Virus record (IMG/VR): IMGVR_UViG_2531839130_000015
Origin: a virus
Lineage: Duplodnaviria; Heunggongvirae; Uroviricota; Caudoviricetes
DNA: 38,838 bases
Reading direction: 5' to 3' (one strand)
The notes under the pieces were generated by a model. It saw only the letters and a list, made by a program, of their open reading frames with translations, searched no databases and was not told where the DNA came from. Position 1 is the stretch's first letter, and each line of letters starts with the position of its first letter. Shown here one piece after another: positions 1 through 31,313 of this stretch. Both the position numbers and the translations under genes were made by a program.

Positions 1-1362
1 ATGTTTAAACCGGAACTCCTTTCCCCGGCGGGAACGCTGAAAAATATGCGTTACGCTTTCGCTTATGGCGCAGATGCTGTTTATGCGGGCCAGCCGCGTT
101 ATTCCCTGCGTGTGCGCAACAACGAATTCAACCACGAAAATCTTCAGCTCGGCATCAATGAAGCCCACGCGCTGGGGAAAAAGTTTTATGTCGTGGTCAA
201 CATTGCACCGCACAACGCCAAGCTGAAAACCTTTATCCGTGACCTGAAACCGGTGGTGGAAATGGGGCCGGATGCGCTGATTATGTCCGATCCAGGGCTG
301 ATTATGCTGGTGCGTGAGCACTTCCCTGAAATGCCGATCCACCTTTCGGTGCAGGCTAACGCCGTGAACTGGGCGACGGTGAAATTCTGGCAGCAAATGG
401 GCCTGACCCGCGTGATCCTCTCTCGCGAGCTGTCGCTGGAAGAGATTGAAGAGATCCGCAATCAGGTGCCGGATATGGAGATCGAGATCTTCGTTCACGG
501 CGCGCTGTGCATGGCCTACTCCGGTCGCTGCCTGCTCTCTGGCTATATCAACAAGCGCGACCCGAACCAGGGCACCTGCACCAACGCCTGCCGCTGGGAG
601 TACAACGTCCAGGAAGGGAAAGAAGATGATGTTGGCAACATCGTACACAAGTACGAGCCGATTCCGGTGCAAAATGTTGAGCCGACGCTGGGTATCGGCG
701 CACCAACCGACAAAGTGTTTATGATCGAAGAGGCCCAGCGTCCGGGCGAGTATATGACCGCGTTTGAAGATGAGCACGGCACTTACATCATGAACTCGAA
801 AGATCTGCGCGCCATCGCCCATGTAGAACGCCTGACCAAAATGGGCGTGCATTCGCTGAAAATCGAAGGTCGTACCAAATCTTTCTACTATTGTGCACGC
901 ACCGCACAGGTTTACCGCAAAGCTATCGATGACGCCGCTGCGGGAAAACCGTTCGATACCAGCCTGCTGGAAACTCTGGAAGGTCTGGCGCATCGTGGCT
1001 ATACTGAAGGTTTCCTGCGTCGTCATACTCACGACGATTATCAGAACTACGAATACGGTTATTCAGTTTCTGACCGCCAGCAGTTTGTTGGTGAGTTTAC
1101 CGGTGAGCGCAAGGGGGACCTCGCGGCGGTAGCGGTGAAAAATAAATTCTCCGTTGGCGACAGCCTTGAGCTGATGACGCCGCAAGGCAACATTAATTTT
1201 ACCCTTGAGCACATGGAAAACGCCAAAGGCGAAGCTATGCCGATAGCACCAGGCGATGGTTATACTGTGTGGCTCCCGGTCCCGCAGGATCTTGAGCTCA
1301 ATTACGCGCTGCTGATGCGTAATTTCTCCGGGGAAACCACGCGTAATCCCCACGGTAAGTGA
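1..1362 (+). CDS. yegQ: Peptidase U32-family protein YegQ (RlhA, 23S rRNA hydroxycytidine synthase), 453 aa, host gene
   Basis: Full-length ORF starting MFKPELLSPAGTLKNMRYAFAYGADAVYAGQPRYSL, recalled as E. coli YegQ; typical enterobacterial GC-rich codon usage. Confidence 0.85.
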   Translation: MFKPELLSPAGTLKNMRYAFAYGADAVYAGQPRYSLRVRNNEFNHENLQLGINEAHALGKKFYVVVNIAPHNAKLKTFIRDLKPVVEMGPDALIMSDPGLIMLVREHFPEMPIHLSVQANAVNWATVKFWQQMGLTRVILSRELSLEEIEEIRNQVPDMEIEIFVHGALCMAYSGRCLLSGYINKRDPNQGTCTNACRWEYNVQEGKEDDVGNIVHKYEPIPVQNVEPTLGIGAPTDKVFMIEEAQRPGEYMTAFEDEHGTYIMNSKDLRAIAHVERLTKMGVHSLKIEGRTKSFYYCARTAQVYRKAIDDAAAGKPFDTSLLETLEGLAHRGYTEGFLRRHTHDDYQNYEYGYSVSDRQQFVGEFTGERKGDLAAVAVKNKFSVGDSLELMTPQGNINFTLEHMENAKGEAMPIAPGDGYTVWLPVPQDLELNYALLMRNFSGETTRNPHGK

Positions 1363-6040: not shown

Positions 6041-6460
6041 TCGTGTTTCCGCTTCGCCGGAGCGCCTTTTCGCGCCATGTGATGAGTTCGGTCAGGCTCA
6101 TGGGATACAGTTCTGATGGCGGCCAGTGAAATATCACTGCCACATCCGCCATCAGGTCATCGACCGAGAGATTTTTCGGAAACGTCACTGCACCGAGTTC
6201 GGCGACAAAAAACCGACCACCTTACCGGCCAGCGCCACAAGGTCAGGCAGTTCCAGCGCGGCGACTTCCTGCTCGGTCAGCATCGGTGCCGTCATGCGCG
6301 GCAGCACCTTAATCAGTGCATCGACTTCGGAGTTTGCAACCGCAGCCAGACTGACACCGCGCAGCGTCCCGGCATTGGGTTTTATCAGCGTGACCTGTTC
6401 GATAACCTGCTCACCACGTTTGACCGGATTGTCCAGGGTAATGACATTTTCTTTGTTCAT
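6033..6460 (-). CDS. E+E': E+E' fusion made by programmed -1 translational frameshift at the slippery run GGTTTTTTG (minus strand, about 6203..6211)
   Basis: Codons GGT TTT TTG (G-F-L) near the 3' end of E form a T-run slippery site; the hand-translated -1 frame continues about 57 codons (VAELGAVTFPKNLSVDDLMADVAVIFHWPPSELYPMSLTELITWREKALRRSGNTNE) to a TAA just inside the start of T, giving about 142-145 aa as for P2 E+E'. Confidence 0.7.
6185..6460 (-). CDS. E: Tail assembly chaperone E (91 aa)
   Basis: MNKENVITLDNPVKRGEQVIEQVTLIKPNAGTLRG matches recalled P2 gpE. Confidence 0.9.
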   Translation of the reverse strand: MNKENVITLDNPVKRGEQVIEQVTLIKPNAGTLRGVSLAAVANSEVDALIKVLPRMTAPMLTEQEVAALELPDLVALAGKVVGFLSPNSVQ

Positions 6461-6516
6461 GGTTTTCTCACTTCTGAATCAGGGTTAACCGGTCAGCCTG
6501 GCTGACCGGATGAAAA

Positions 6517-7035
6517 TCACAGGCCGATATTTCGGCGGTGTTGCTCCAGCCGGTCGACGCCGTTCACCTTCTCAATCATGTTAATGGTGTCGATTTCGAC
6601 CAGCTCCTTACCGTCCATCGTCAGCCGGAAATAGGTGCAGACCACGGAGATTTTCGACTCAGTGTCTTCTCCCTGTTTCCCCTCGCCGGTGTCGATTTCT
6701 TTCTGACGTCCACGCATGACCACCTCGACGGCCACCGTTTCGCCGGTATCGTCGCGCTGGTAAGAGCCAGCAAAACGAATCGGTACGGCATCCACACCGG
6801 TTGCGGCGTAAAGCTCCCAGATAACCGAATCCGGGAAGCCACCGAGCGACCACTCCATTGACAGCGCATCGTCATCAAGGCCGAGGTCTACCGGTGCGCT
6901 GCCGTTCATCCCCGCACCGCGATAGTTTTCGAGTTTACGGGTCAGTTTTGGTAGCGTGACGGACTTTGCAACGCCCTGATAGCTGTAGCCGTTCAGAAAG
7001 ACGTTCATTAACTTGAGTTTGCGCGGCATTGCCAT
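6517..7035 (-). CDS. FII: Tail tube protein FII (172 aa)
   Basis: Size and synteny with P2 gpFII. Confidence 0.9.
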   Translation of the reverse strand: MAMPRKLKLMNVFLNGYSYQGVAKSVTLPKLTRKLENYRGAGMNGSAPVDLGLDDDALSMEWSLGGFPDSVIWELYAATGVDAVPIRFAGSYQRDDTGETVAVEVVMRGRQKEIDTGEGKQGEDTESKISVVCTYFRLTMDGKELVEIDTINMIEKVNGVDRLEQHRRNIGL

Positions 7036-8661: not shown

Positions 8662-9414
8662 ATGAAAGGAGGCATAAATTTGGATACTAACAGTCCATTA
8701 ATTGAAGTCGAGCAGAACACTTCAGACATATATATTCCGTTGCAAGCCTGGTTCGAGGGGAGAAAATTCCTTTCACACAGATTTTCGGGCCAAAACTGTA
8801 GTGATAATCCATCAAGTGATTGGGAGGCTTGGTTATCAATACAGGAATGCTGTCCTCTCCATCAGGTCAATAGTCTTAACTGGGTCGGACTGCATGAAGC
8901 CAGGAAAAATACAGATTCATTCTTGGGGAATGTGAAGAGTGAATTTAATGGAAAGCTTCCCATTTTTATTCATGAAAAGGAGAGGGTGATAATCGAAAAA
9001 AAAATCGGCATTCCTCCCAAACCCTCATTACCAATCTATTTAATATCATGCTCTGATATGGATGATACCAATGAACACATTGTTTATGTCGGAAAAACCG
9101 TTAACTCCAAAAGGTTTATTGGCGGTCACTCGGCTGCCTTAAAGTTGCTAGATCCCAAATATAATAATATGAAAAAGAGGATATATAGAGCCACCCCATG
9201 GTTTTATGATGGAAAAGACTATATTTCACTGGATTGGATTAGTCCGACATCATTAGCTATAGAATTACTTGACTTTATAGAGTCTCATCTTATTTACAAT
9301 CTCAAGCCGGAACTCAACACATCGAAGAAAAAAAATGAAGATACACGTTATTCTTTTTATCTTCACATTCAGAACTTTTTATCAACAGGCTTTCTTAATG
9401 ATGAGTTTATTTAA
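8662..9414 (+). CDS. AT-rich cargo protein with a C-terminal GIY-YIG nuclease-like domain and an unknown N-terminal domain (about 244-250 aa)
   Basis: PIYLISCSDMDDTNEHIVYVGKTVNSKRFIGGH fits the GIY...YVG(K/S)(A/T)...R...H pattern of I-TevI/UvrC-type domains, with a downstream IESHLIYN...N segment consistent with the catalytic Glu/Asn. Strong AAGGAGG Shine-Dalgarno at about 8666..8672 suggests the real start may be TTG at about 8680 rather than ATG at 8662. Occupies the P2 Z/fun position. Confidence 0.6.
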   Translation: MKGGINLDTNSPLIEVEQNTSDIYIPLQAWFEGRKFLSHRFSGQNCSDNPSSDWEAWLSIQECCPLHQVNSLNWVGLHEARKNTDSFLGNVKSEFNGKLPIFIHEKERVIIEKKIGIPPKPSLPIYLISCSDMDDTNEHIVYVGKTVNSKRFIGGHSAALKLLDPKYNNMKKRIYRATPWFYDGKDYISLDWISPTSLAIELLDFIESHLIYNLKPELNTSKKKNEDTRYSFYLHIQNFLSTGFLNDEFI

Positions 9415-9789: not shown

Positions 9790-11325
9790 CTAATTCGGCC
9801 TTGCTTGAATAGCAGACTCTATAGCTGCTCGGAATTCCGGGGCATCAGTTCTTAATCGATAATCATCAAGGGTATTGAATATTTCTAGAAGTTCTCTACG
9901 ATAATGCAGCGGTGCTGAATTACCTTCGCCTCTAGTGGTGAAAATTAATAATGAGTCAGCGACGTCTTTTAATTTTTTATTCCTTTTCAACCTAATATAA
10001 CAAGATACAACTATATCAAGAATATGCTTTCTAGATTTCAAGGTGAGTTTATTATTAGGCATAACCAACTGCAGCATAGCACCAAGTAATTTGGTAGCCT
10101 CTTTTGAAATATAATGAAGATCGAAATTATCTATTTCTTTATTTTCTTGAGGAATCTCCTTTTCATCTATCCATTCGCATTGTTCTGCCCAATCTGTAGC
10201 GACGCTAAATAAATGACAGAGAAGGAAGTGAAAAGGTGTTTCCCATTCACCACTATATTCATCTGATTGCCTATTCATATTCTTTATAATTTTCCTTGCG
10301 AAATATGAATAGTAATGCAACCATAAATGATCCTGAAGACCCTGGTGAATACCTTCATGAACCATAATTTCAAACAGCGTGACACCTGAGTAAATAGGAC
10401 ATTTATATTTTGAAGCATCGTAATAGGAACCTAAAGACTTATTAAGTGCAGCAATAATTTTTTCATCTTCATCTAACCTCCAGTAGAGATAGTCACCGAT
10501 ATCACGGTATATTGCTAAATCAGCTGCAAACTTAGCATTGGAAAAGAAAAAATGTAATATACGGTTGTTTTTTGGAATCAATAAACGATGTCCTCGACTA
10601 ACGTTAAGATTATTTTTAAGCTCAACATATAGACGACTGTTAGGTGAACCAAGTAATGCACTGATAAAATTAGAAGTAAAGTCAGAACGAACTATTGGCT
10701 CGATCTTGATTAACTCAAGGCAGAGGGATGGGTGCGCAAGTGCAAAGTGATTGGTAAGTTCAGGTGATGAGACAATATTTAACAATGCTTCATGTGCATG
10801 TTCAGCAGCTGTCTCGCGATTAGAGATGCGGAGATTGTTAGCTATCTTATCACAAAGTCGATTCTTCACAGGTCTATCAATTATTGATATTAATTTTTCT
10901 AGTTGAGGTGCCAACAATTGTGCCAGATCGTCGTATCGTTTAGTAAGGTGCAAATTTTCCACTAACTCTAGAAATATCCCTGTTCTTCCAATTGAGAGTT
11001 TAGGGTTTTTTAAGCGAAATGAAATGTAAATAGCAACTGCGAGTGATATCAGGTATACGGCACTTGAACTATCTAATCCCCATTTCCAGGGGCCAAAGCT
11101 AAAATATAAGTCTAGTGATTTTAAAGCCGGTGCAAACACCAAATAATTGCTTAGTAAGAATGCAAACCCAACAATTACCCAATCCCACCACGCTAGGCAG
11201 AACCTTAAACGTAGTCGAGCGTTTGGCGTAATAAGGGCCCATACAGCAGCAATAACGCCCAATATGGTAAGTAGACTTGATGTATCAATTTTGGTTGGCG
11301 GTGTCATAATTTCTCTTGTAATCAT
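9790..11325 (-). CDS. AT-rich cargo membrane protein (511 aa): about three N-terminal TM helices plus a large soluble domain with an HExxHxxxxxH motif; function unknown
   Basis: Hydrophobic segments LLTILGVIAAVWALI, WVIVGFAFLLSNYLVFAPAL, AVYLISLAVAIYISF; motif VHEGIHQGLQDH resembles zinc-metallopeptidase HExxH/metzincin spacing; no P2 backbone gene of this kind recalled; convergent with the upstream GIY-YIG gene. Confidence 0.6.
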   Translation of the reverse strand: MITREIMTPPTKIDTSSLLTILGVIAAVWALITPNARLRLRFCLAWWDWVIVGFAFLLSNYLVFAPALKSLDLYFSFGPWKWGLDSSSAVYLISLAVAIYISFRLKNPKLSIGRTGIFLELVENLHLTKRYDDLAQLLAPQLEKLISIIDRPVKNRLCDKIANNLRISNRETAAEHAHEALLNIVSSPELTNHFALAHPSLCLELIKIEPIVRSDFTSNFISALLGSPNSRLYVELKNNLNVSRGHRLLIPKNNRILHFFFSNAKFAADLAIYRDIGDYLYWRLDEDEKIIAALNKSLGSYYDASKYKCPIYSGVTLFEIMVHEGIHQGLQDHLWLHYYSYFARKIIKNMNRQSDEYSGEWETPFHFLLCHLFSVATDWAEQCEWIDEKEIPQENKEIDNFDLHYISKEATKLLGAMLQLVMPNNKLTLKSRKHILDIVVSCYIRLKRNKKLKDVADSLLIFTTRGEGNSAPLHYRRELLEIFNTLDDYRLRTDAPEFRAAIESAIQARPN

Positions 11326-15881: not shown

Positions 15882-16229
15882 TCAACTCACAGGGATGGTT
15901 AATGAAAGTGGCTGGCCGGTGTCGTTGTGCTGGCCGGTTAACGTGACCGTCATTCGCCCGTCAAAACTGCGCTCAGTGGTGACGGATGACAGGGTGACGC
16001 GGGGTTCCCATTTCAGCACCGCCATGTAACAGGCGACCTTAATCTGCAACTCAAGCGCCGGGGTCTGCGGCTGGTCAATCATTGATGCCAGCAACGAGCC
16101 GTAATCACGACGCATCACCCGTGAGCCGACCGGTGTGCGCAGGATATCGCCGATACTCTGGCTGATATGCTCAAGGTCAGTGACAGTCAGGCCATCACTG
16201 CGATTCATTCCGAGATAACGCGCTGTCAT
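15882..16229 (-). CDS. W: Baseplate protein W (115 aa)
   Basis: Size and synteny with P2 gpW. Confidence 0.85.
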   Translation of the reverse strand: MTARYLGMNRSDGLTVTDLEHISQSIGDILRTPVGSRVMRRDYGSLLASMIDQPQTPALELQIKVACYMAVLKWEPRVTLSSVTTERSFDGRMTVTLTGQHNDTGQPLSLTIPVS

Positions 16230-16861
16230 AAAGGACTCCCGGTTGTGCCGCCGCTGTCGCCGGGGTGTTTATGGGTATGCAGTACCTTACCGTTTGATGA
16301 GAGTTCACCGCCGGTGTGTTCAATGTTGCCGCGCATCGTCCCGCCCTTCTGCACTTCCAGCGTGCCGGTAATCAGCCTGTTGGTGCAGACCACCTCCGGG
16401 GTGTCCAGGGTGACGCGGGTTGATGCTTTCACCATGACCACCGGCACCGTGGCAGTAACAGAATCAGAAGCCGTCACGCTGGCCGTTTTAATTCCGCTTA
16501 CCGTAAGTGCACTGGTTTCGGGTTCATATTCAATCACCGCCCCGTCAGGGAAACGGATATGCAGGGCATCCGCCGACGCAGACGGCGCGGGGTTATCGCC
16601 GGAATAAATCCCCGACAGAACGAACGCCGTGTCGAGTTCACCGCCGACGGCCAGAATCAGCACCTGTTCCCCCACGGAAGGTGCCCACCATGTGCGCGAA
16701 CGCCCGGCGCGATGGGTCAGCCACTGAAGCCAGTCGGTGCACATGCCGCCGGTCTGCACACGGCAGCGACCGGCGTTAAGGTCGGTTTCGACGACAATGC
16801 CGGTGCGTATCATGTTGCGCAGTGCGCGCGCGAGTTCCTGAATATTTGATAATGTGCTCAT
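16226..16861 (-). CDS. V: Baseplate spike protein V (211 aa); track ORF over-extended at the N-terminus
   Basis: MSTLSNIQELARALRNMIRTGIVVETDLNAGRCRVQTGGM matches recalled P2 gpV; start moved to that Met. Confidence 0.85.
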   Translation of the reverse strand: MSTLSNIQELARALRNMIRTGIVVETDLNAGRCRVQTGGMCTDWLQWLTHRAGRSRTWWAPSVGEQVLILAVGGELDTAFVLSGIYSGDNPAPSASADALHIRFPDGAVIEYEPETSALTVSGIKTASVTASDSVTATVPVVMVKASTRVTLDTPEVVCTNRLITGTLEVQKGGTMRGNIEHTGGELSSNGKVLHTHKHPGDSGGTTGSPL

Positions 16862-16944
16862 ACGGCAATAATGAGAGATATATACTCGATAAACCATTAC
16901 AACCCGTTGTATCATTTTTGGCACAATCAAGAAGGAACTGAAGT

Positions 16945-17688
16945 ATGGATAAATATCAAATCTGGGAAAATCAAAAAGACACCATCGCCCACCAAGAGTA
17001 TTTAAAAATCTCCGACACCAATTTACTTGGACATATGCATATTGCCAATTACGAAGTTGTCCAACATGAATTAAGCAAATTCAACTCCCCTGACATTGTT
17101 TCCCGTCATTCATTTAACAGAGACAAATTTAAAAAAGAACATTTAAACATATCAAGACACCTTTTCAATTATATATCTTCAGCATTATCATTTAGAGATT
17201 CAACGCGCAACCTACTTAAAACAAAAGCATTAAATATTGCCGACATTAAAATCAAATCAGAGGCATTCATCAATCATGAATTCCGAAATAATCCAGTAAT
17301 AAAATTAATGGAGGATTTAAGAAACATCCTGACGCATCAAAACATGATCGCCCCATCAATATCATCATTCATGCACCTCCAAAGAAATATAAACATGCAC
17401 GGCTTTTCATTTAAGATTGAAAGAATCTTAAACAATGACAGAACCACCAAACAAACAAAAGAATATTTAATCTCACTAAAGCAAAAAAACTTATTCATTT
17501 TACCGATAATAGAAGAATACCAATACACGACTCTTAAGTATCAACACTGGCTTTTAGCAAGTATCTACACTGTTCATCAAGATACTTACCAAGAATACTG
17601 GAATGCGAGAAAAAACATCATGAACGAATGGGGAGGAGACACTCAGCTAATACCTAAAGAGAGTGAGCTCACTTATTTAACCAGATAA
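16945..17688 (+). CDS. AT-rich cargo protein (247 aa), unknown function, with an R-N-x3-H (HEPN-like) motif
   Basis: Clean ORF with AAGGAA Shine-Dalgarno; inserted between V and S and divergent from V; motif LRNILTHQN; no confident family assignment. Confidence 0.55.
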   Translation: MDKYQIWENQKDTIAHQEYLKISDTNLLGHMHIANYEVVQHELSKFNSPDIVSRHSFNRDKFKKEHLNISRHLFNYISSALSFRDSTRNLLKTKALNIADIKIKSEAFINHEFRNNPVIKLMEDLRNILTHQNMIAPSISSFMHLQRNINMHGFSFKIERILNNDRTTKQTKEYLISLKQKNLFILPIIEEYQYTTLKYQHWLLASIYTVHQDTYQEYWNARKNIMNEWGGDTQLIPKESELTYLTR

Positions 17689-17721
17689 CAACCTGGTCAG
17701 TTCGCAAACGGAAAAAACTGG

Positions 17722-17742
17722 CCGCGACATTTTATCGCGGCC
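17722..17742 (-). terminator. Hairpin terminator between the 247-aa cargo gene and S (functions for the minus-strand O-to-S late operon)
   Basis: GCCGCGAcattttaTCGCGGC; on the minus strand the hairpin is followed by CAGTTTTTTCC. Confidence 0.5.
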
Positions 17743-17892
17743 TTAAACATTCAAACGATCACCATTGATGAATCCTTATGCCCCAATCGACTGTATATTT
17801 TCAAGTGGCAATTAAAACTTATCCGACGAAAATACAAAGAGTGTTATACAACAATCAACAACTCAGCAATAAAGCGTAAAAAAATTGCACAA

Positions 17893-18345
17893 CTAACGAT
17901 CGAGGTGAGCCAGGATAATCTCTTCAATCATCTGCACATCCTTACCGGTAAAGCCGAGCAAAGGACGCGCCGGATAATCAATTTTCTTACCGTCTTTCCG
18001 GGTTTCTTCCGACAGACCAAACTGATGCACGCTGGCGATTTTCGGTGACTTCCCGCCGTAAAATTCCATTGATGCCTGTTCCGGGCTGGCGCGGATATGC
18101 AAAAAACGACTGGTGATAAGTTTCGCAAACATTTTTCGCTTAACGCGACCGGTCTTTTTTCTGGCGCTCTGCTGCTGGCGTGGCGCGTAGGGTGTGCCGT
18201 CCGGGGCTTTCTGTGCCATCACCCGACGCTGCTGACTCTGACGCAGACGTTTCGCCAGTTCGGCGCTCAGTCGCCGACGCCCTGACGGTGACAGCGATTC
18301 AATCAGCCCGGTCAGCCGGTCTTCAAAACGCTTAAACTCATTCAT
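17893..18345 (-). CDS. S: Tail completion protein S (150 aa)
   Basis: Size and synteny with P2 gpS; start overlaps the stop of the R remnant. Confidence 0.85.
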   Translation of the reverse strand: MNEFKRFEDRLTGLIESLSPSGRRRLSAELAKRLRQSQQRRVMAQKAPDGTPYAPRQQQSARKKTGRVKRKMFAKLITSRFLHIRASPEQASMEFYGGKSPKIASVHQFGLSEETRKDGKKIDYPARPLLGFTGKDVQMIEEIILAHLDR

Positions 18346-18538
18346 CCCACTTACTCACCAGTTCGCCATTGATATAAAGCTCCATCGGGCGGGTGACCGG
18401 CTCCGGCGGCGGGGGTTCCGGGATATTCTTCACATGCAGTGCGCCGTCAACCTTGCGTATTACCGTGAAGGAGATCGGTGAGTAACATCGATGGAGATCG
18501 GTTCGTGTCACTTTCACAGAACCGTTTTTAAATTACCT

Positions 18539-19288
18539 TCACTGATCTCCTTCGGTCAACGGAGATTGTATTTTCCGCATTGATTCTCCTTTAAGTTCGA
18601 TCTTGATACTGCCATGAACCAGTCGATCTAGGATGGCATCCGCATGTGTGGAGTCTCCGATCATTTTGTACCAGTTTTCCACCGGCAACTGGCTCACTAC
18701 GATGATTGAGCCTCGTTGGTACATCAGATCCACTATTTCCAGCAGGTCGCTACGCTGTTCTGATGAGAGAGGTTCCAGCCCCCAGTCATCCAGAAGCAGC
18801 AGATCGCTATTATTCAGCCTGGTCAAAAGTTTGCTGTATCTTCCATCAGCATGCCCCTGATAGCACTGTTCCATCAGCGCTTTAAGGCGATAATAGTAGA
18901 CCTTGTATCCCTGTCGGCAGGCATTATGACCAAGTGCACATGCCAGGAACGTTTTACCGCTGCCGGTGGCCCCGGTCAGTAAAATATTTTGTTTCAGGGT
19001 TAACCAGTTTCCCTGACTGAGTGAACGGATGAGGGCCCTGTCCAGCCCTCTATTGTTACGATAATCCAGCTTTGATAACTCAGCATTAAGTCTGAACCGT
19101 GCATGTTTGATCAGACGCTCTGCCTTCCTGTTTTCACGGCAGGTTAGTTCTTCTGCTGTCAGTAATGACAGGCGTTCTTCGAAGCCCAGCTCCTGGTATG
19201 TGCCCGGTTGAGCAAGTTGCTTTTTAAGCGCATCACGGAAGCCGGTGAGTTTAAGTGCGGTCAGTTGTTCGTAAAGATGATTCATCAT
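18539..19288 (-). CDS. istB: IS21-family helper ATPase IstB (249 aa)
   Basis: Walker A LLTGATGSGKT and Walker B LLLLDDWG, DnaC-like AAA+ architecture typical of IstB. Confidence 0.85.
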   Translation of the reverse strand: MMNHLYEQLTALKLTGFRDALKKQLAQPGTYQELGFEERLSLLTAEELTCRENRKAERLIKHARFRLNAELSKLDYRNNRGLDRALIRSLSQGNWLTLKQNILLTGATGSGKTFLACALGHNACRQGYKVYYYRLKALMEQCYQGHADGRYSKLLTRLNNSDLLLLDDWGLEPLSSEQRSDLLEIVDLMYQRGSIIVVSQLPVENWYKMIGDSTHADAILDRLVHGSIKIELKGESMRKIQSPLTEGDQ

Positions 19289-19299
19289 TGGATCCCGTA

Positions 19300-20841
19300 T
19301 CAGTGGTAATACTCACTGCCGCGTACGTTTTCGTGTTCCATCGTGGATAACAGATCTGGTTTTGGATCCTGAACAGGTTGTTTATCCAGACCTTTTTCCA
19401 GGATCGATTTAATACCTGACAGACGCCATACCTTTGTTTTCAGAGCTCTTGCACATGCTGCATTAAGTCTGGCTTTACTGTATTTTTTATGAAGGTTCAG
19501 GAGTCCAAGGCAGAAGCGATAGCTTTGTTCCGGATGTGGACGAGAGTTCAGTATATGAAGCACATAACTATGAGTTTCACTGCCTATGTGCCCCGCCCAT
19601 TCCAGAAGACGCTCTGGCGTCCAGGTGGCATGCTGTCGATGAGCTTCAGGCATGTGCTCGTTGCGGGTACTGTAGCCATAAGTACGCTTGCGCGGGTGCA
19701 CAGCAACCTCCTGCCCCTGATTGAAGAGTCTTACCAGTTCTCCGGAGATCCATGCTTCCAGTTGCTGGCCTAACAGCGAACATGGAACCGAGTAGTAATG
19801 TTTGTCGATTTCCACGTGGTAATCGGCATGAACTCTGACTTTCTTCACCAGGGTGTAACTGTAACTGGCTTCAGGAAGAGGCTTCAGTGCGGGTTTATCA
19901 AGCTGGATGAAGAGTTCTGCACGTGAATAACCCAACTTCTGCATTATTTTGTTATTCAGTCTTTCCAGCAACTCCCGAATGCGCTGATTAAGCGATGCAA
20001 GGCTGTAGAAGATCTCATGCCTGATTCGGGCCATGATCCAGCGTTCAACAACCTGAACGCCAACTTCAGCTTTGGCTTTATCTTTCGGTTTACGTGGCCG
20101 CGCAGGCAAAACTGCGACATTATAATGCTCAAGCATCTGCTGGTAGGTAGGGTTAACGTCAGGATCATACTTACATGCCCTGGATGTGGCGCTTTTCAGA
20201 TTGTCCGGAACAACAAGTTCAGGAACGCCACCCAACCACTGGAAGCAGCGAACATGACTCATCACCCAGTCTTCAGGCTGCTGAGACCAGGTGGCCTCTG
20301 CCCATGTGTAACTTGATGCCCCGAGAACAGCTACGATGACCTGAGCAGTTCTTATTTCTCCGGTCTCAGGGTCGGTAACGCCAACGGTAGGTCCACAGTA
20401 ATCAACGAAAAGTTTTTCGCCAGCTTTATGTACCTGACGCATTGATGGTGAAGTGGTTTTGAGCCATTCACGGTACATCCGGCAGTAATGGTTATAGCTG
20501 TAAAAACCGCCTGGATTACGCTCACAGTATTCTTCCCAGAGTAGCTGCAGCGTCACGCATTTATTACGCAGTTCCCGGTGTACTGTAGCCCAGTCAGGCA
20601 GAGAGTGCTTCTTCATCTTAACCTGGGTCTGAAGGAACGCATGTTTTAGTTTTGTATCATCCCATCCTGTAGGTAAGGGCCACTGCTTTATGCCAAGTTG
20701 AGCCGCCCGATTAGCATATCTGGATACAACGGAAGGGGAGATTGCAAGACTACGACCAATTTGTCGATGGCTGAGTCCAACACCGTATTTAAGCCTAAGA
20801 ATTTCTTTAAGTTTTCTCATAGAAATTGGAACTGTTGGCAT
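19300..20841 (-). CDS. istA: IS21-family transposase IstA (513 aa)
   Basis: N-terminal HTH plus integrase-like core, directly upstream of istB in the same orientation; family recognised by recall, specific IS name not assigned. Confidence 0.8.
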   Translation of the reverse strand: MPTVPISMRKLKEILRLKYGVGLSHRQIGRSLAISPSVVSRYANRAAQLGIKQWPLPTGWDDTKLKHAFLQTQVKMKKHSLPDWATVHRELRNKCVTLQLLWEEYCERNPGGFYSYNHYCRMYREWLKTTSPSMRQVHKAGEKLFVDYCGPTVGVTDPETGEIRTAQVIVAVLGASSYTWAEATWSQQPEDWVMSHVRCFQWLGGVPELVVPDNLKSATSRACKYDPDVNPTYQQMLEHYNVAVLPARPRKPKDKAKAEVGVQVVERWIMARIRHEIFYSLASLNQRIRELLERLNNKIMQKLGYSRAELFIQLDKPALKPLPEASYSYTLVKKVRVHADYHVEIDKHYYSVPCSLLGQQLEAWISGELVRLFNQGQEVAVHPRKRTYGYSTRNEHMPEAHRQHATWTPERLLEWAGHIGSETHSYVLHILNSRPHPEQSYRFCLGLLNLHKKYSKARLNAACARALKTKVWRLSGIKSILEKGLDKQPVQDPKPDLLSTMEHENVRGSEYYH

Positions 20842-21353
20842 AGGTATCCTTTACCGGAATGGCAAAAGATACAGATCAACACACCTGTGAAGTTCCAATA
20901 ACATTGATGGAGATCACTGAATAACAAAATGAGTCAAAAGTGATCTCCATCGATGTTATTCAGCGATCTGTTCAAATGTTATTACCCGATCTCGATGGAA
21001 GTTATTGAGTGATCTCCTTTCATGAAAATACGCAAACCTCACTGACCAGCGTGCGCTCGGTCAGCATCAGGCTGATGCTGATATCAAAGCTGCTGTCATT
21101 GTTGATGTCTGCATAAAACGTGAAGCCCTTTTTCTGGCCTTCGTCGGTGGTCATGATGTCGGGCTGATTTTCCCGCAGCCACGCCAGCACCGGCACGATG
21201 AGCAGGTCAAAATCACCGGTAAAGTCGGTCACAATCACATTGAGCGTGTAACGCTTTTCGAACGACAGCGACGTCGCCAGTGTGGAGGCAATACTCCCGT
21301 TATCCACGAATATCCGCAGCATATCGGGGTTAGTTTTCAGCACCGTGACGGCA

Positions 21354-29990: not shown

Positions 29991-31313
29991 TTAGTTTGTT
30001 TTTTTAACTCCACTGTATTCCGCTATCATCCTCTCAACCGCTGGAAGCAACTCAGCAGGAACGCAAATAGACCTATCTGCCTTTCCAACATCTTTTGGCG
30101 TTTTGTAAGTACCATTATAATTAAGGACGCATTCTTTAAGAATTTCAAAAAGAGAAACAATAGGGTCCACGCCATAGCTATCAATAAACTTTCGATAGCT
30201 ATCATTATCAGATAACGATGAAATATCTCCATGAACAAACTTACACCTAAGCTCATAGATTATTCCTATTTTTGAATCAATATCAATAATTTTCGCCGCA
30301 TCTCTGCAAACACCGCCAACAATTGAATTTTTATTACCATTATTGGTTCCATACATAGCATCCAATGCTATAAATTGATTCAAAAACCTTTCACGTTTGT
30401 CATCCCTCCACCCGTGCGCTATAAAGGAAAGAGCAGACAACATCCTTTTATCAGGTGATGAAAGTATTTTTGTAAGTATCGCCAAGGCTGAATCCGTTAT
30501 ATTTAAATTATATACAGACGGAATATTCACCCGAAACTCACTTTCATGATATTTCCCGACACCAAAAGACTCAACTAGATTATTAACAGCAACTCGATTA
30601 ATCGCAAAAGGATTATCAACCGCAAGACATAAAGCTCCAAACAAACTATCAAACATTTTCACCGCTTTATCCTCTGATGAAGCATATGCCACCACCAAGC
30701 AGGATTTTGACTGTCGAAAATATTTCCCAATTGGTTTATGCCGCATATATTCATCATCATAAAAATCAACAGGAACCTTGATGTCAGTTTTGTCTTTAAT
30801 ATCAGAAAGTAATTCCACCCCTAGCCCCGGGCCATATAAAAATAAATTTTCTCTAAGCTCAAGCTTCCCATCAAAGCCAGCACACCCAAGATTATAAATA
30901 TACGGACAGGATTTTATTCGTGAAAGTATATAATACTTAAACATCTCACTAAGATTTTTTCTATGAACTTGCGTTATAATATCATCAACACAAATCTTAT
31001 CAGGATTAAGCGACAGAAAATCAGCATCAATGCGATTGAAGGCTTCAGAACAAAAACCTAACAATAATCTTTTCGCATTGTGAAGGTCACTTATACCTAA
31101 TTGGGGGCCATATGCTTTTAATAACCTACTAGCACATTTTGCAATCTCCTCATCATTATATGCAAGCCAAAAAACAAAATCTTCTAATGCTTTACCGACT
31201 TGAATACAAGGCTGCTCCTTACCATGACTATAAAAAAAACTTTTGCATAATTTGTTTATCATGCCATTAGAGAACGCAACCTTCATAGATACTTCATCCC
31301 TTAACGCACTCAT
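29991..31313 (-). CDS. AT-rich cargo protein (440 aa), unknown function, at the P2 orf91/tin/old position; possible C-terminal HEPN-like R-x4-H motif
   Basis: Clean ORF with AAGGA Shine-Dalgarno about 9 nt upstream; same orientation as gene A, between A and cos; motif ELRCKFVHGD; no Walker or other catalytic motif recognised. Confidence 0.6.
   Translation of the reverse strand: MSALRDEVSMKVAFSNGMINKLCKSFFYSHGKEQPCIQVGKALEDFVFWLAYNDEEIAKCASRLLKAYGPQLGISDLHNAKRLLLGFCSEAFNRIDADFLSLNPDKICVDDIITQVHRKNLSEMFKYYILSRIKSCPYIYNLGCAGFDGKLELRENLFLYGPGLGVELLSDIKDKTDIKVPVDFYDDEYMRHKPIGKYFRQSKSCLVVAYASSEDKAVKMFDSLFGALCLAVDNPFAINRVAVNNLVESFGVGKYHESEFRVNIPSVYNLNITDSALAILTKILSSPDKRMLSALSFIAHGWRDDKRERFLNQFIALDAMYGTNNGNKNSIVGGVCRDAAKIIDIDSKIGIIYELRCKFVHGDISSLSDNDSYRKFIDSYGVDPIVSLFEILKECVLNYNGTYKTPKDVGKADRSICVPAELLPAVERMIAEYSGVKKTN

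Follow-up and report, generated by a model that had tools for sequence, protein, structure and literature searches.

The Salmonella prophage Gifsy-1 encodes HepS (STM14_3211), a HEPN protein that acts solo in abortive infection. HepS is inactive as a tetramer; once triggered by tail-tip proteins of siphoviruses, it cleaves tRNAs in their anticodon loops (PMC13043305). Here we describe a 744-bp gene for a HEPN-like protein of 247 aa, which lies as accessory cargo between the genes V and S of a P2-like prophage in the IMG/VR record IMGVR_UViG_2531839130_000015 (38,838 nucleotides, referred to as the window in its full length). Both proteins comprise less than 250 aa, occupy a prophage accessory slot without a partner gene, contain an Rx4H motif (R100–H105 in HepS, R126–H131 in the window protein) and have homologues across distant bacteria, often on prophages. 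However, no sequence similarity between the two was detected and the profile of the window family matched no PDB chain. The window protein also possesses a beta insert and, C-terminal to the motif, two long helices, and its host phage is a P2-type myovirus, whereas the host of HepS is a lambdoid siphovirus. While trigger, substrate and phenotype are known for HepS, the window protein is known from its sequence and a structural model.

Two further groups of HEPN proteins are close enough for comparison. The protein pEK499_p136 (PF18736, ‘HEPN family nuclease’) exhibits LRN-x3-H after a hydrophobic helix and is likewise a small stand-alone protein near restriction-modification or toxin-antitoxin genes on mobile elements (PMC3710099), but it is only 166 aa long. 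The HepT/MntA toxins (HEPN-MNT, type II/VII; PDB 7ae2, 8xdj, 1jog, 1ylm) share the helical bundle with Rx4H. In contrast to them, the window protein is ∼100 residues longer and without sequence similarity, and no MNT antitoxin gene is adjacent in the cassette or in homologous loci. The position of the gene has been described as well. Regions of P2 commonly holding non-P2 genes are the TO region, the Z/fun region and orf30, and these genes are thought to be horizontally acquired (PMC3091744); in phage R18C a hypothetical open reading frame (ORF) of 741 bp between V and S, ORF16, replaces the 261-bp orf30 (PMC6823313). The window cargo is found at this same S–V position, but it is a 744-bp gene different from orf30 of P2, on the strand opposite to that of the late genes.

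We propose, with a probability of about 0.5, that the cargo gene encodes a stand-alone HEPN-type RNase that may serve the prophage as an anti-phage effector. This proposal combines the conservation pattern of the protein family, the predicted structure and the analogy to HepS. The features on which it is based are as follows.

16226..16861, minus strand: P2 gene V (baseplate spike), left anchor of the slot, from the ORF and its translation; matching records annotate baseplate assembly protein V
16930..16936, plus strand: ribosome-binding site AGAAGGA, read from the sequence 8 nt 5' of the cargo ATG
16945..17688, plus strand: cargo gene of the HEPN-like family, 247 aa, 744 bp, ATG start
17320..17337, plus strand: codons of R126-N127-I-L-T-H131, the predicted catalytic motif, within the peptide DLRNILTHQN
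17893..18345, minus strand: P2 gene S (tail completion/virion morphogenesis), right anchor of the slot, from the ORF and matching records

The window contains a complete P2-like prophage in the order D/U/T/E/FII/FI, G/H/I/J/W/V, S/R, lysis genes, X/L/M/N/O, P/Q, A and int. In agreement with the preliminary description, the AT-rich plus-strand ORF is divergent from V, and its product contains R-N-x3-H in DLRNILTHQN; the ORF is convergent with S. GC content falls from 0.55–0.63 in V/W/J to 0.31–0.37 over the ORF and rises to 0.52–0.57 in S (per gene 0.33 for the cargo vs 0.54–0.60 for the flanks). Since DNA of 33% GC is rich in stop codons, a frame of this length is unlikely to have stayed open by chance. 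All five loci aligned retain the ribosome-binding site, either as AGAAGGA or as GGGGGA. A ratio of nonsynonymous to synonymous divergence (dN/dS) of 0.17, 337 family representatives in public data and a confident AlphaFold model (mean predicted local distance difference test, pLDDT, of 95) identify the ORF as a real gene, and a spurious ORF was rejected on the basis of distribution and selection. It is the sole ORF of at least 40 aa in the cassette, where no second gene was found.

The window protein had no match in Pfam (E ≤ 10), NCBIfam or PADLOC-DB v2 and corresponds over its full length to phrog_12680, to which PHROGs assigns no function, so that its classification as a protein of unknown function is justified. 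A word-indexed protein search recovered only 7 close clusters; an exhaustive search with a hidden Markov model (HMM) built from the alignment of these 7 resulted in 337 cluster representatives at E ≤ 1e-3. Most members comprise 200–310 aa. An alignment of 131 members, which are 15–76% identical to the window protein, contains only three invariant columns, N75, R126 and H131, while N35, R88, L125, Y192 and W202 are at least 90% conserved. R126 and H131 are thus present in 131/131 members, and position 127 is occupied by N in 108/131, by Q in 7 and by H in 4. The Rx4H motif is in register in essentially all of the 150 representatives listed. The family signature consists of E-x2-R-x3-N … D-H-T-R in one long helix, followed by F-x2-D-L-R-N-Y-x2-H-x3-P, and the window protein retains it with the exception of E68 (N) and H86 (S). 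In the long helix (residues 59–90), E68-x2-R71 (R in 116/131) precedes the invariant N75, a spacing unlike the Ex3[KR] of helix 2 in HEPN domains (PMC3710099). A lone Rx4H carries little weight, since the window protein contains a second one (RNINMH at residue 147) that is not conserved; it is the family-wide invariance that lends weight to the motif. HEPN domains are defined by a conserved Rx4-6H with a polar residue, typically N, D or H, directly after R, and inserts are frequent (PMC3710099). Such a motif with a polar residue after R is found across the family.

Some relatives reach ∼700 aa, and in these the homologous module is N-terminal. In P0037, P0052, P0076, P0078, P0103, P0144–P0146 and P0152 the ∼230-aa module is followed by a conserved region of ∼450 aa with the motifs PIA-x-LE and QG-x-AA. 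This C-terminal region contains no Pfam domain, no PDB sequence match and no conserved second Rx4H, and could be a sensor domain. A second set of long relatives (P0068, P0082, P0109) has a different C-terminal extension.

AlphaFold2 with a 6-sequence alignment yielded a model with pLDDT 56.7, which was discarded, while 131 sequences led to pLDDT 95.4 and a predicted template modelling score (pTM) of 0.90. The model is all-alpha with a small beta insert. Helices 14–44, 59–90, 99–113 and 117–131 precede the strands 138–144 and 149–157, which are followed by short helices and the long helices 185–214 and 216–229. The motif is located at the C-terminal end of helix 117–131 and is followed by non-helical residues, a predicted position that fits the one defining HEPN domains (PMC3710099).

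Several observations weigh against the proposed function. The profile and structure searches suggested in the preliminary description yielded no match in Pfam, PDB or BFVD that would identify the protein: Foldseek found nothing at E ≤ 0.001 in PDB and BFVD, and the family profile had no relevant match in PDB, with TRF2 and tropinone reductase as the only, chance, hits. A Pfam scan of the 131 members returned only scattered chance hits, among them PF18736 once (E 0.0057). In a direct homology test, pEK499_p136 was confirmed as PF18736 and 62 members of that family were aligned and compared to the window family by hhalign, which resulted in a non-significant probability of 3.3% over 25 columns. 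The window protein is also without a PADLOC match, and the usual acidic residue of helix 2, E68 in 95/131 members, is N68. Finally, the window prophage is probably defective in tail assembly because an IS21-family insertion sequence (IS) splits the tail-completion gene R, so that current selection on the cargo is uncertain.

Based on sequence comparison, the window protein is not a member of PF18736, since the match spans 25 columns at 3% probability and the one of 131 members that touches the Pfam model is below threshold. The best local HMM and hhalign alignments to the pEK499_p136 family do superpose both LRN-x3-H motifs exactly, yet neither sequence nor profile comparison linked the window family significantly to an established HEPN family. 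A PADLOC scan of the 131 members likewise gave scattered chance matches, none of them consistent. The HEPN motif pointed out in the preliminary description is strengthened as a lead, as R-N-x3-H is invariant down to 15% identity (apart from N, 108/131) and lies at a helix end in the model, while a significant profile or fold match is missing. From sequence and model the family is plausibly HEPN-like and a deep branch of the superfamily, although the statistics of the profile and fold searches do not prove membership.

The IS21-family element extends over 18454..21035 with an istA-like gene (19300..20841, minus strand) and an istB-like gene (18539..19288, minus strand). Relative to the intact prophage in L001 (NZ_CP025856.1), 2582 bp are inserted in the window, and the junctions overlap by 4 bp, which resembles a target duplication. 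The cassette of L001 is 100% identical to that of the window; RefSeq classifies V of L001 (7365..8000) as a pseudogene with an internal stop, whereas V of the window is intact.

The genomic contexts of nine distant relatives revealed no recurrent neighbour and no partner gene. One relative is located immediately downstream of an MmeI-type restriction-modification enzyme, one adjoins SocA_Panacea and N6_Mtase/Eco57I genes, one adjoins genes for an nSTAND NTPase and a DUF4011 helicase(-nuclease), and one is surrounded by genes for a KAP NTPase, a GIY-YIG protein, a restriction-modification fusion and SIR2. Altogether, four of the nine contexts are defence-island-like, one is a Firmicute prophage and the rest are uninformative. 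The gene thus occurs without a conserved partner or inhibitor gene, as a solo gene.

Taken together, the cargo protein may be a divergent HEPN-type metal-independent RNase. Its predicted active site would comprise R126, N127 and H131 at the end of the core helix, to which the long helix before it would probably contribute N75 and R88. As in other HEPN enzymes, this site would probably span the interface of a dimer. The effector would be expressed from the prophage without a partner and stay inactive until an infecting phage triggers it. RNA cleavage by the triggered effector would then abort the infection and protect the lysogen population, as is the case for HepS.

To define the distribution of the cargo, the V–S interval of 1031 bp was compared to 5426 complete E. 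coli genomes by megablast. It was found with its cargo in 18 of these genomes, in each case in a P2-like prophage and flanked by V and S. Identity was at least 99% for six copies and 80–82% for the other twelve. A 5-kb query for the flanking module (J to lysB) matched 1679 of the 5426 genomes, mostly at 95–99% identity, and only 18 of the matches span the middle. The cargo gene is therefore missing from ∼99% of those E. coli prophages in which V and S are near-identical. The contents of the slot were read from a spread sample of 60 records, while the extent of the exchanged segment is given for the window.

16862..17885 of the window, no strand: swapped cassette, from the V start codon to a few bases from the S stop; similarity to prophages with an empty slot or other cargo ends right after the V ATG and resumes at ∼17885 with GCACAACTAACG, the right boundary being approximate
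About 35 of 60 records: slot empty, with 66 bp from V start to S stop
11 of 60 records (∼1 in 5), e.g. L016 2084..2869: unrelated 261-aa protein with hydrophobic segments (predicted membrane protein), the commonest cargo at the slot
1 record, L017 2111..3154: 347-aa protein
1 record, L018 2107..3351: 414-aa P-loop NTPase matching the PADLOC candidate PDC-S59 (E 5.8e-31)
1 record, L019 2078..2818, minus strand: 246-aa ORF with CxxC...H...CxxC spacing, HNH-like by eye
1 record, L028 2078..2807, minus strand: two small ORFs
1 record: IS2 insertion

The slot is hence either empty or holds one of at least six unrelated contents, with flanks that are 95–100% identical, and the profile of the cargo family matched none of the other V–S cargo proteins. 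Since each class replaces everything from the V ATG to a few bases short of the S stop, whole cassettes are exchanged. The cargo gene is a horizontally exchanged single-gene accessory cassette in the known S–V (orf30) variable slot. This survey, with 18 cargo copies in 1679 module-bearing genomes and empty or unrelated cassettes otherwise, agrees with the initial classification as accessory cargo. The third accessory locus postulated at the same time is real as well, but it is not new, as it was already described as the orf30 variable region (PMC3091744; PMC6823313). Neither megablast nor tblastn found a match of the cargo in 50,697 phage records, and because of this tblastn result R18C ORF16 cannot be equated with it; ORF16 may instead correspond to the 741-bp minus-strand ORF of L019.

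The history of the cargo differs from that of its flanks. In the prophages L002 and L003 the proteins J, W, V and S are 95–100% identical to those of the window (V: 99.5% in L002, 94.8% in L003), whereas the cargo proteins are only 76–77% identical. Compared to both alleles, synonymous divergence (dS) of the cargo is 0.75 vs 0.04–0.15 in the flanks, a 5- to 20-fold difference. As dS of the cargo exceeds that of the flanks and dN/dS is 0.17, the cargo alleles are much older than the backbones carrying them and under purifying selection. Identity of the L002 allele (6084..6827) to the window is 100% in the spacer next to V and in the first ∼60 nt of the gene, but only 60–90% per 60-nt block thereafter. 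This abrupt end of identity points to a recombination breakpoint inside the cargo gene. In remoter P2-like prophages (L004, L005) the same slot holds homologues of 59 and 51% identity, with V proteins 70–73% and S proteins 51–53% identical to those of the window.

The noncoding parts of the locus contain the following elements.

16886..16915, plus strand: sigma-70-like promoter candidate for the cargo, TCGATA-18-TATCAT, from a consensus scan (9/12 matches)
16908..16925, no strand: TGT-N12-ACA dyad, exact match, 47–64 bp upstream of the V ATG in the 83-bp V–cargo spacer
17710..17742, minus strand: intrinsic terminator of the S (late) operon, 10-bp stem, 3-nt loop and T6 tract, from a terminator scan
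17743..17892, no strand: AT-rich spacer of 150 bp between the terminator and the S stop, poorly conserved in L002/L003 and absent in L004/L005

The terminator, the only terminator-like site of the locus, has its stem at 17720..17742 and a fold energy of −25.1 kcal/mol (z = −2.1). A compensatory change from a G–C to an A–T pair in L002 and L003 supports a functional stem. The preliminary description regarded this hairpin as shared between the cargo gene and the end of the S operon. This view has to be corrected: the T-tract is on the minus strand only (GGCCGCGAtaaaaTGTCGCGGCC AGTTTTTTCC), and on the plus strand A6 precedes the hairpin and TTAAACATT follows it. Due to this asymmetry the hairpin is the terminator of the S operon; for the cargo it could act only weakly, as a bidirectional terminator, if at all. 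The adjoining spacer comprises only unconserved ORFs of 27–33 aa and has no Rfam match.

On the other side of the gene lies the only sigma-70-like candidate for the cargo; in the consensus scan such sites were no more frequent than in shuffled sequence. The dyad at 16908..16925 is largely conserved in five aligned loci, including L002–L005. It resembles the Ogr-type late-activator site of P2 late promoters and is a candidate for such a site of the V promoter. Exact TGT-N12-ACA is not enriched in the window, with 5 sites found vs ∼10 expected, so that the dyad is a lead rather than evidence. The −10 hexamer of the cargo promoter candidate lies inside the dyad; if both sites were real, one might speculate that late activation of V could compete with transcription of the cargo. 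Every cassette carries its own sequence up to the V start codon, and the upstream region of V consequently varies among prophages (16862..16944 of the window vs L016–L019, L027 and L028). A short G(C/A)ACAAC-like element ∼50–60 bp upstream of V recurs in most cassette classes. In the empty class the 66-bp gap between V and S holds a GC-rich hairpin, which raises the question of where the V promoter is located.

Instead of a nuclease, the cargo could encode a helical accessory factor for counter-defence, superinfection exclusion, lysogenic conversion or the binding of a ligand or nucleic acid, with R, N and H involved in binding. The missing profile and fold matches to HEPN enzymes would be in agreement with such a factor, as would the fact that some HEPN-fold domains are non-catalytic (PMC3710099). 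Phage accessory slots also hold anti-defence and exclusion genes, and between V and S itself a predicted membrane protein is the most frequent cargo. Nevertheless, R and H, with four-residue spacing and a polar residue after R, are strictly invariant over 131 members even though identity falls to 15%, as is typical of a catalytic site, and relatives are found among restriction-modification, NTPase and SIR2 genes of bacterial chromosomes, not in phages alone. We therefore consider a non-nuclease possible but unlikely. Still less likely is a toxin whose antitoxin escaped recognition, be it a peptide or an antisense or cis-encoded RNA in the cassette, e.g. in 17743..17892 or antisense to the ORF. 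Many HEPN toxins are restrained by a partner (HepT/MntA, RnlA/RnlB), the AT-rich 3' spacer with its small ORFs is unexplained and promoter-like sites occur on the minus strand inside the cargo gene. However, such sites are no commoner than in shuffled sequence, and the spacer is poorly conserved already in 77%-identical alleles, absent in 51–59% alleles and without an Rfam match. The contexts of the nine relatives share no conserved neighbour, and HepS demonstrates that solo HEPN proteins can be self-inhibited (PMC13043305).

A phage gene for P2-type morphogenesis or late regulation, such as a helper of tail or baseplate assembly, would account for the position inside the late tail-gene cluster and for the 51–59% homologues in the same slot of remoter P2-like prophages. 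It is highly improbable all the same: near-identical V and S occur almost always without the cargo and mostly with a 66-bp gap, the strand is opposite to that of the late operons, GC content (0.33) and dS (5- to 20-fold) set the gene apart from its flanks, and family members occur in non-phage chromosomal islands. Its distribution, together with selection, effectively refutes a role in morphogenesis.

Besides the V–S cargo, the prophage contains three accessory ORFs: those at 8662..9414 (plus strand) and 9790..11325 (minus strand) occupy the Z/fun position, which separates FI from G, and that at 29991..31313 (minus strand) occupies the TO region, which separates Q from A. None of these three had a match in Pfam or PADLOC, and all three variable regions of the prophage hence carry unannotated cargo. 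At its left edge (1..1362) the window contains a gene of the Peptidase_U32 family (E 5e-89), which presumably belongs to the flanking host chromosome.

The locus thus harbours a new unannotated family, most likely related to HEPN RNases, in an already known variable slot, a finding that a specialist would regard as plausible rather than surprising. More tentatively, and with a HEPN-type effector remaining our preferred interpretation, the family might represent a new class of stand-alone immune effectors. Such a class would be defined by a ∼230-aa self-sensing module with invariant N...R-N-x3-H, distributed from Enterobacteria to Firmicutes and metagenomes in at least 337 clusters at 50% identity, with a possible dedicated sensor domain in the ∼700-aa forms. 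It would be either convergently HEPN-like or a deep new HEPN branch with a beta insert, and the V–S slot would be a small and little-explored source of single-gene defences in addition to the cos-proximal hotspot. The cos-proximal region has been the focus of recent surveys of defence hotspots in P2, and it is the only hotspot covered by Rousset et al. (2022). In the V–S slot of the P2 late genes, single-gene cassettes are swapped as a whole, and one of them matches a PADLOC defence candidate; the slot offers a compact place to seek single-gene systems. The proposed function is cheap to test with one gene of 744 bp and two point mutants. If it proves true, an uncharacterised and fairly widespread family would be added to the HEPN RNases, and the window protein would be the second partner-less prophage HEPN protein after HepS. 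The same questions as for HepS would then apply, namely how the protein is silenced, what triggers it and how the phage carrying it avoids self-targeting.

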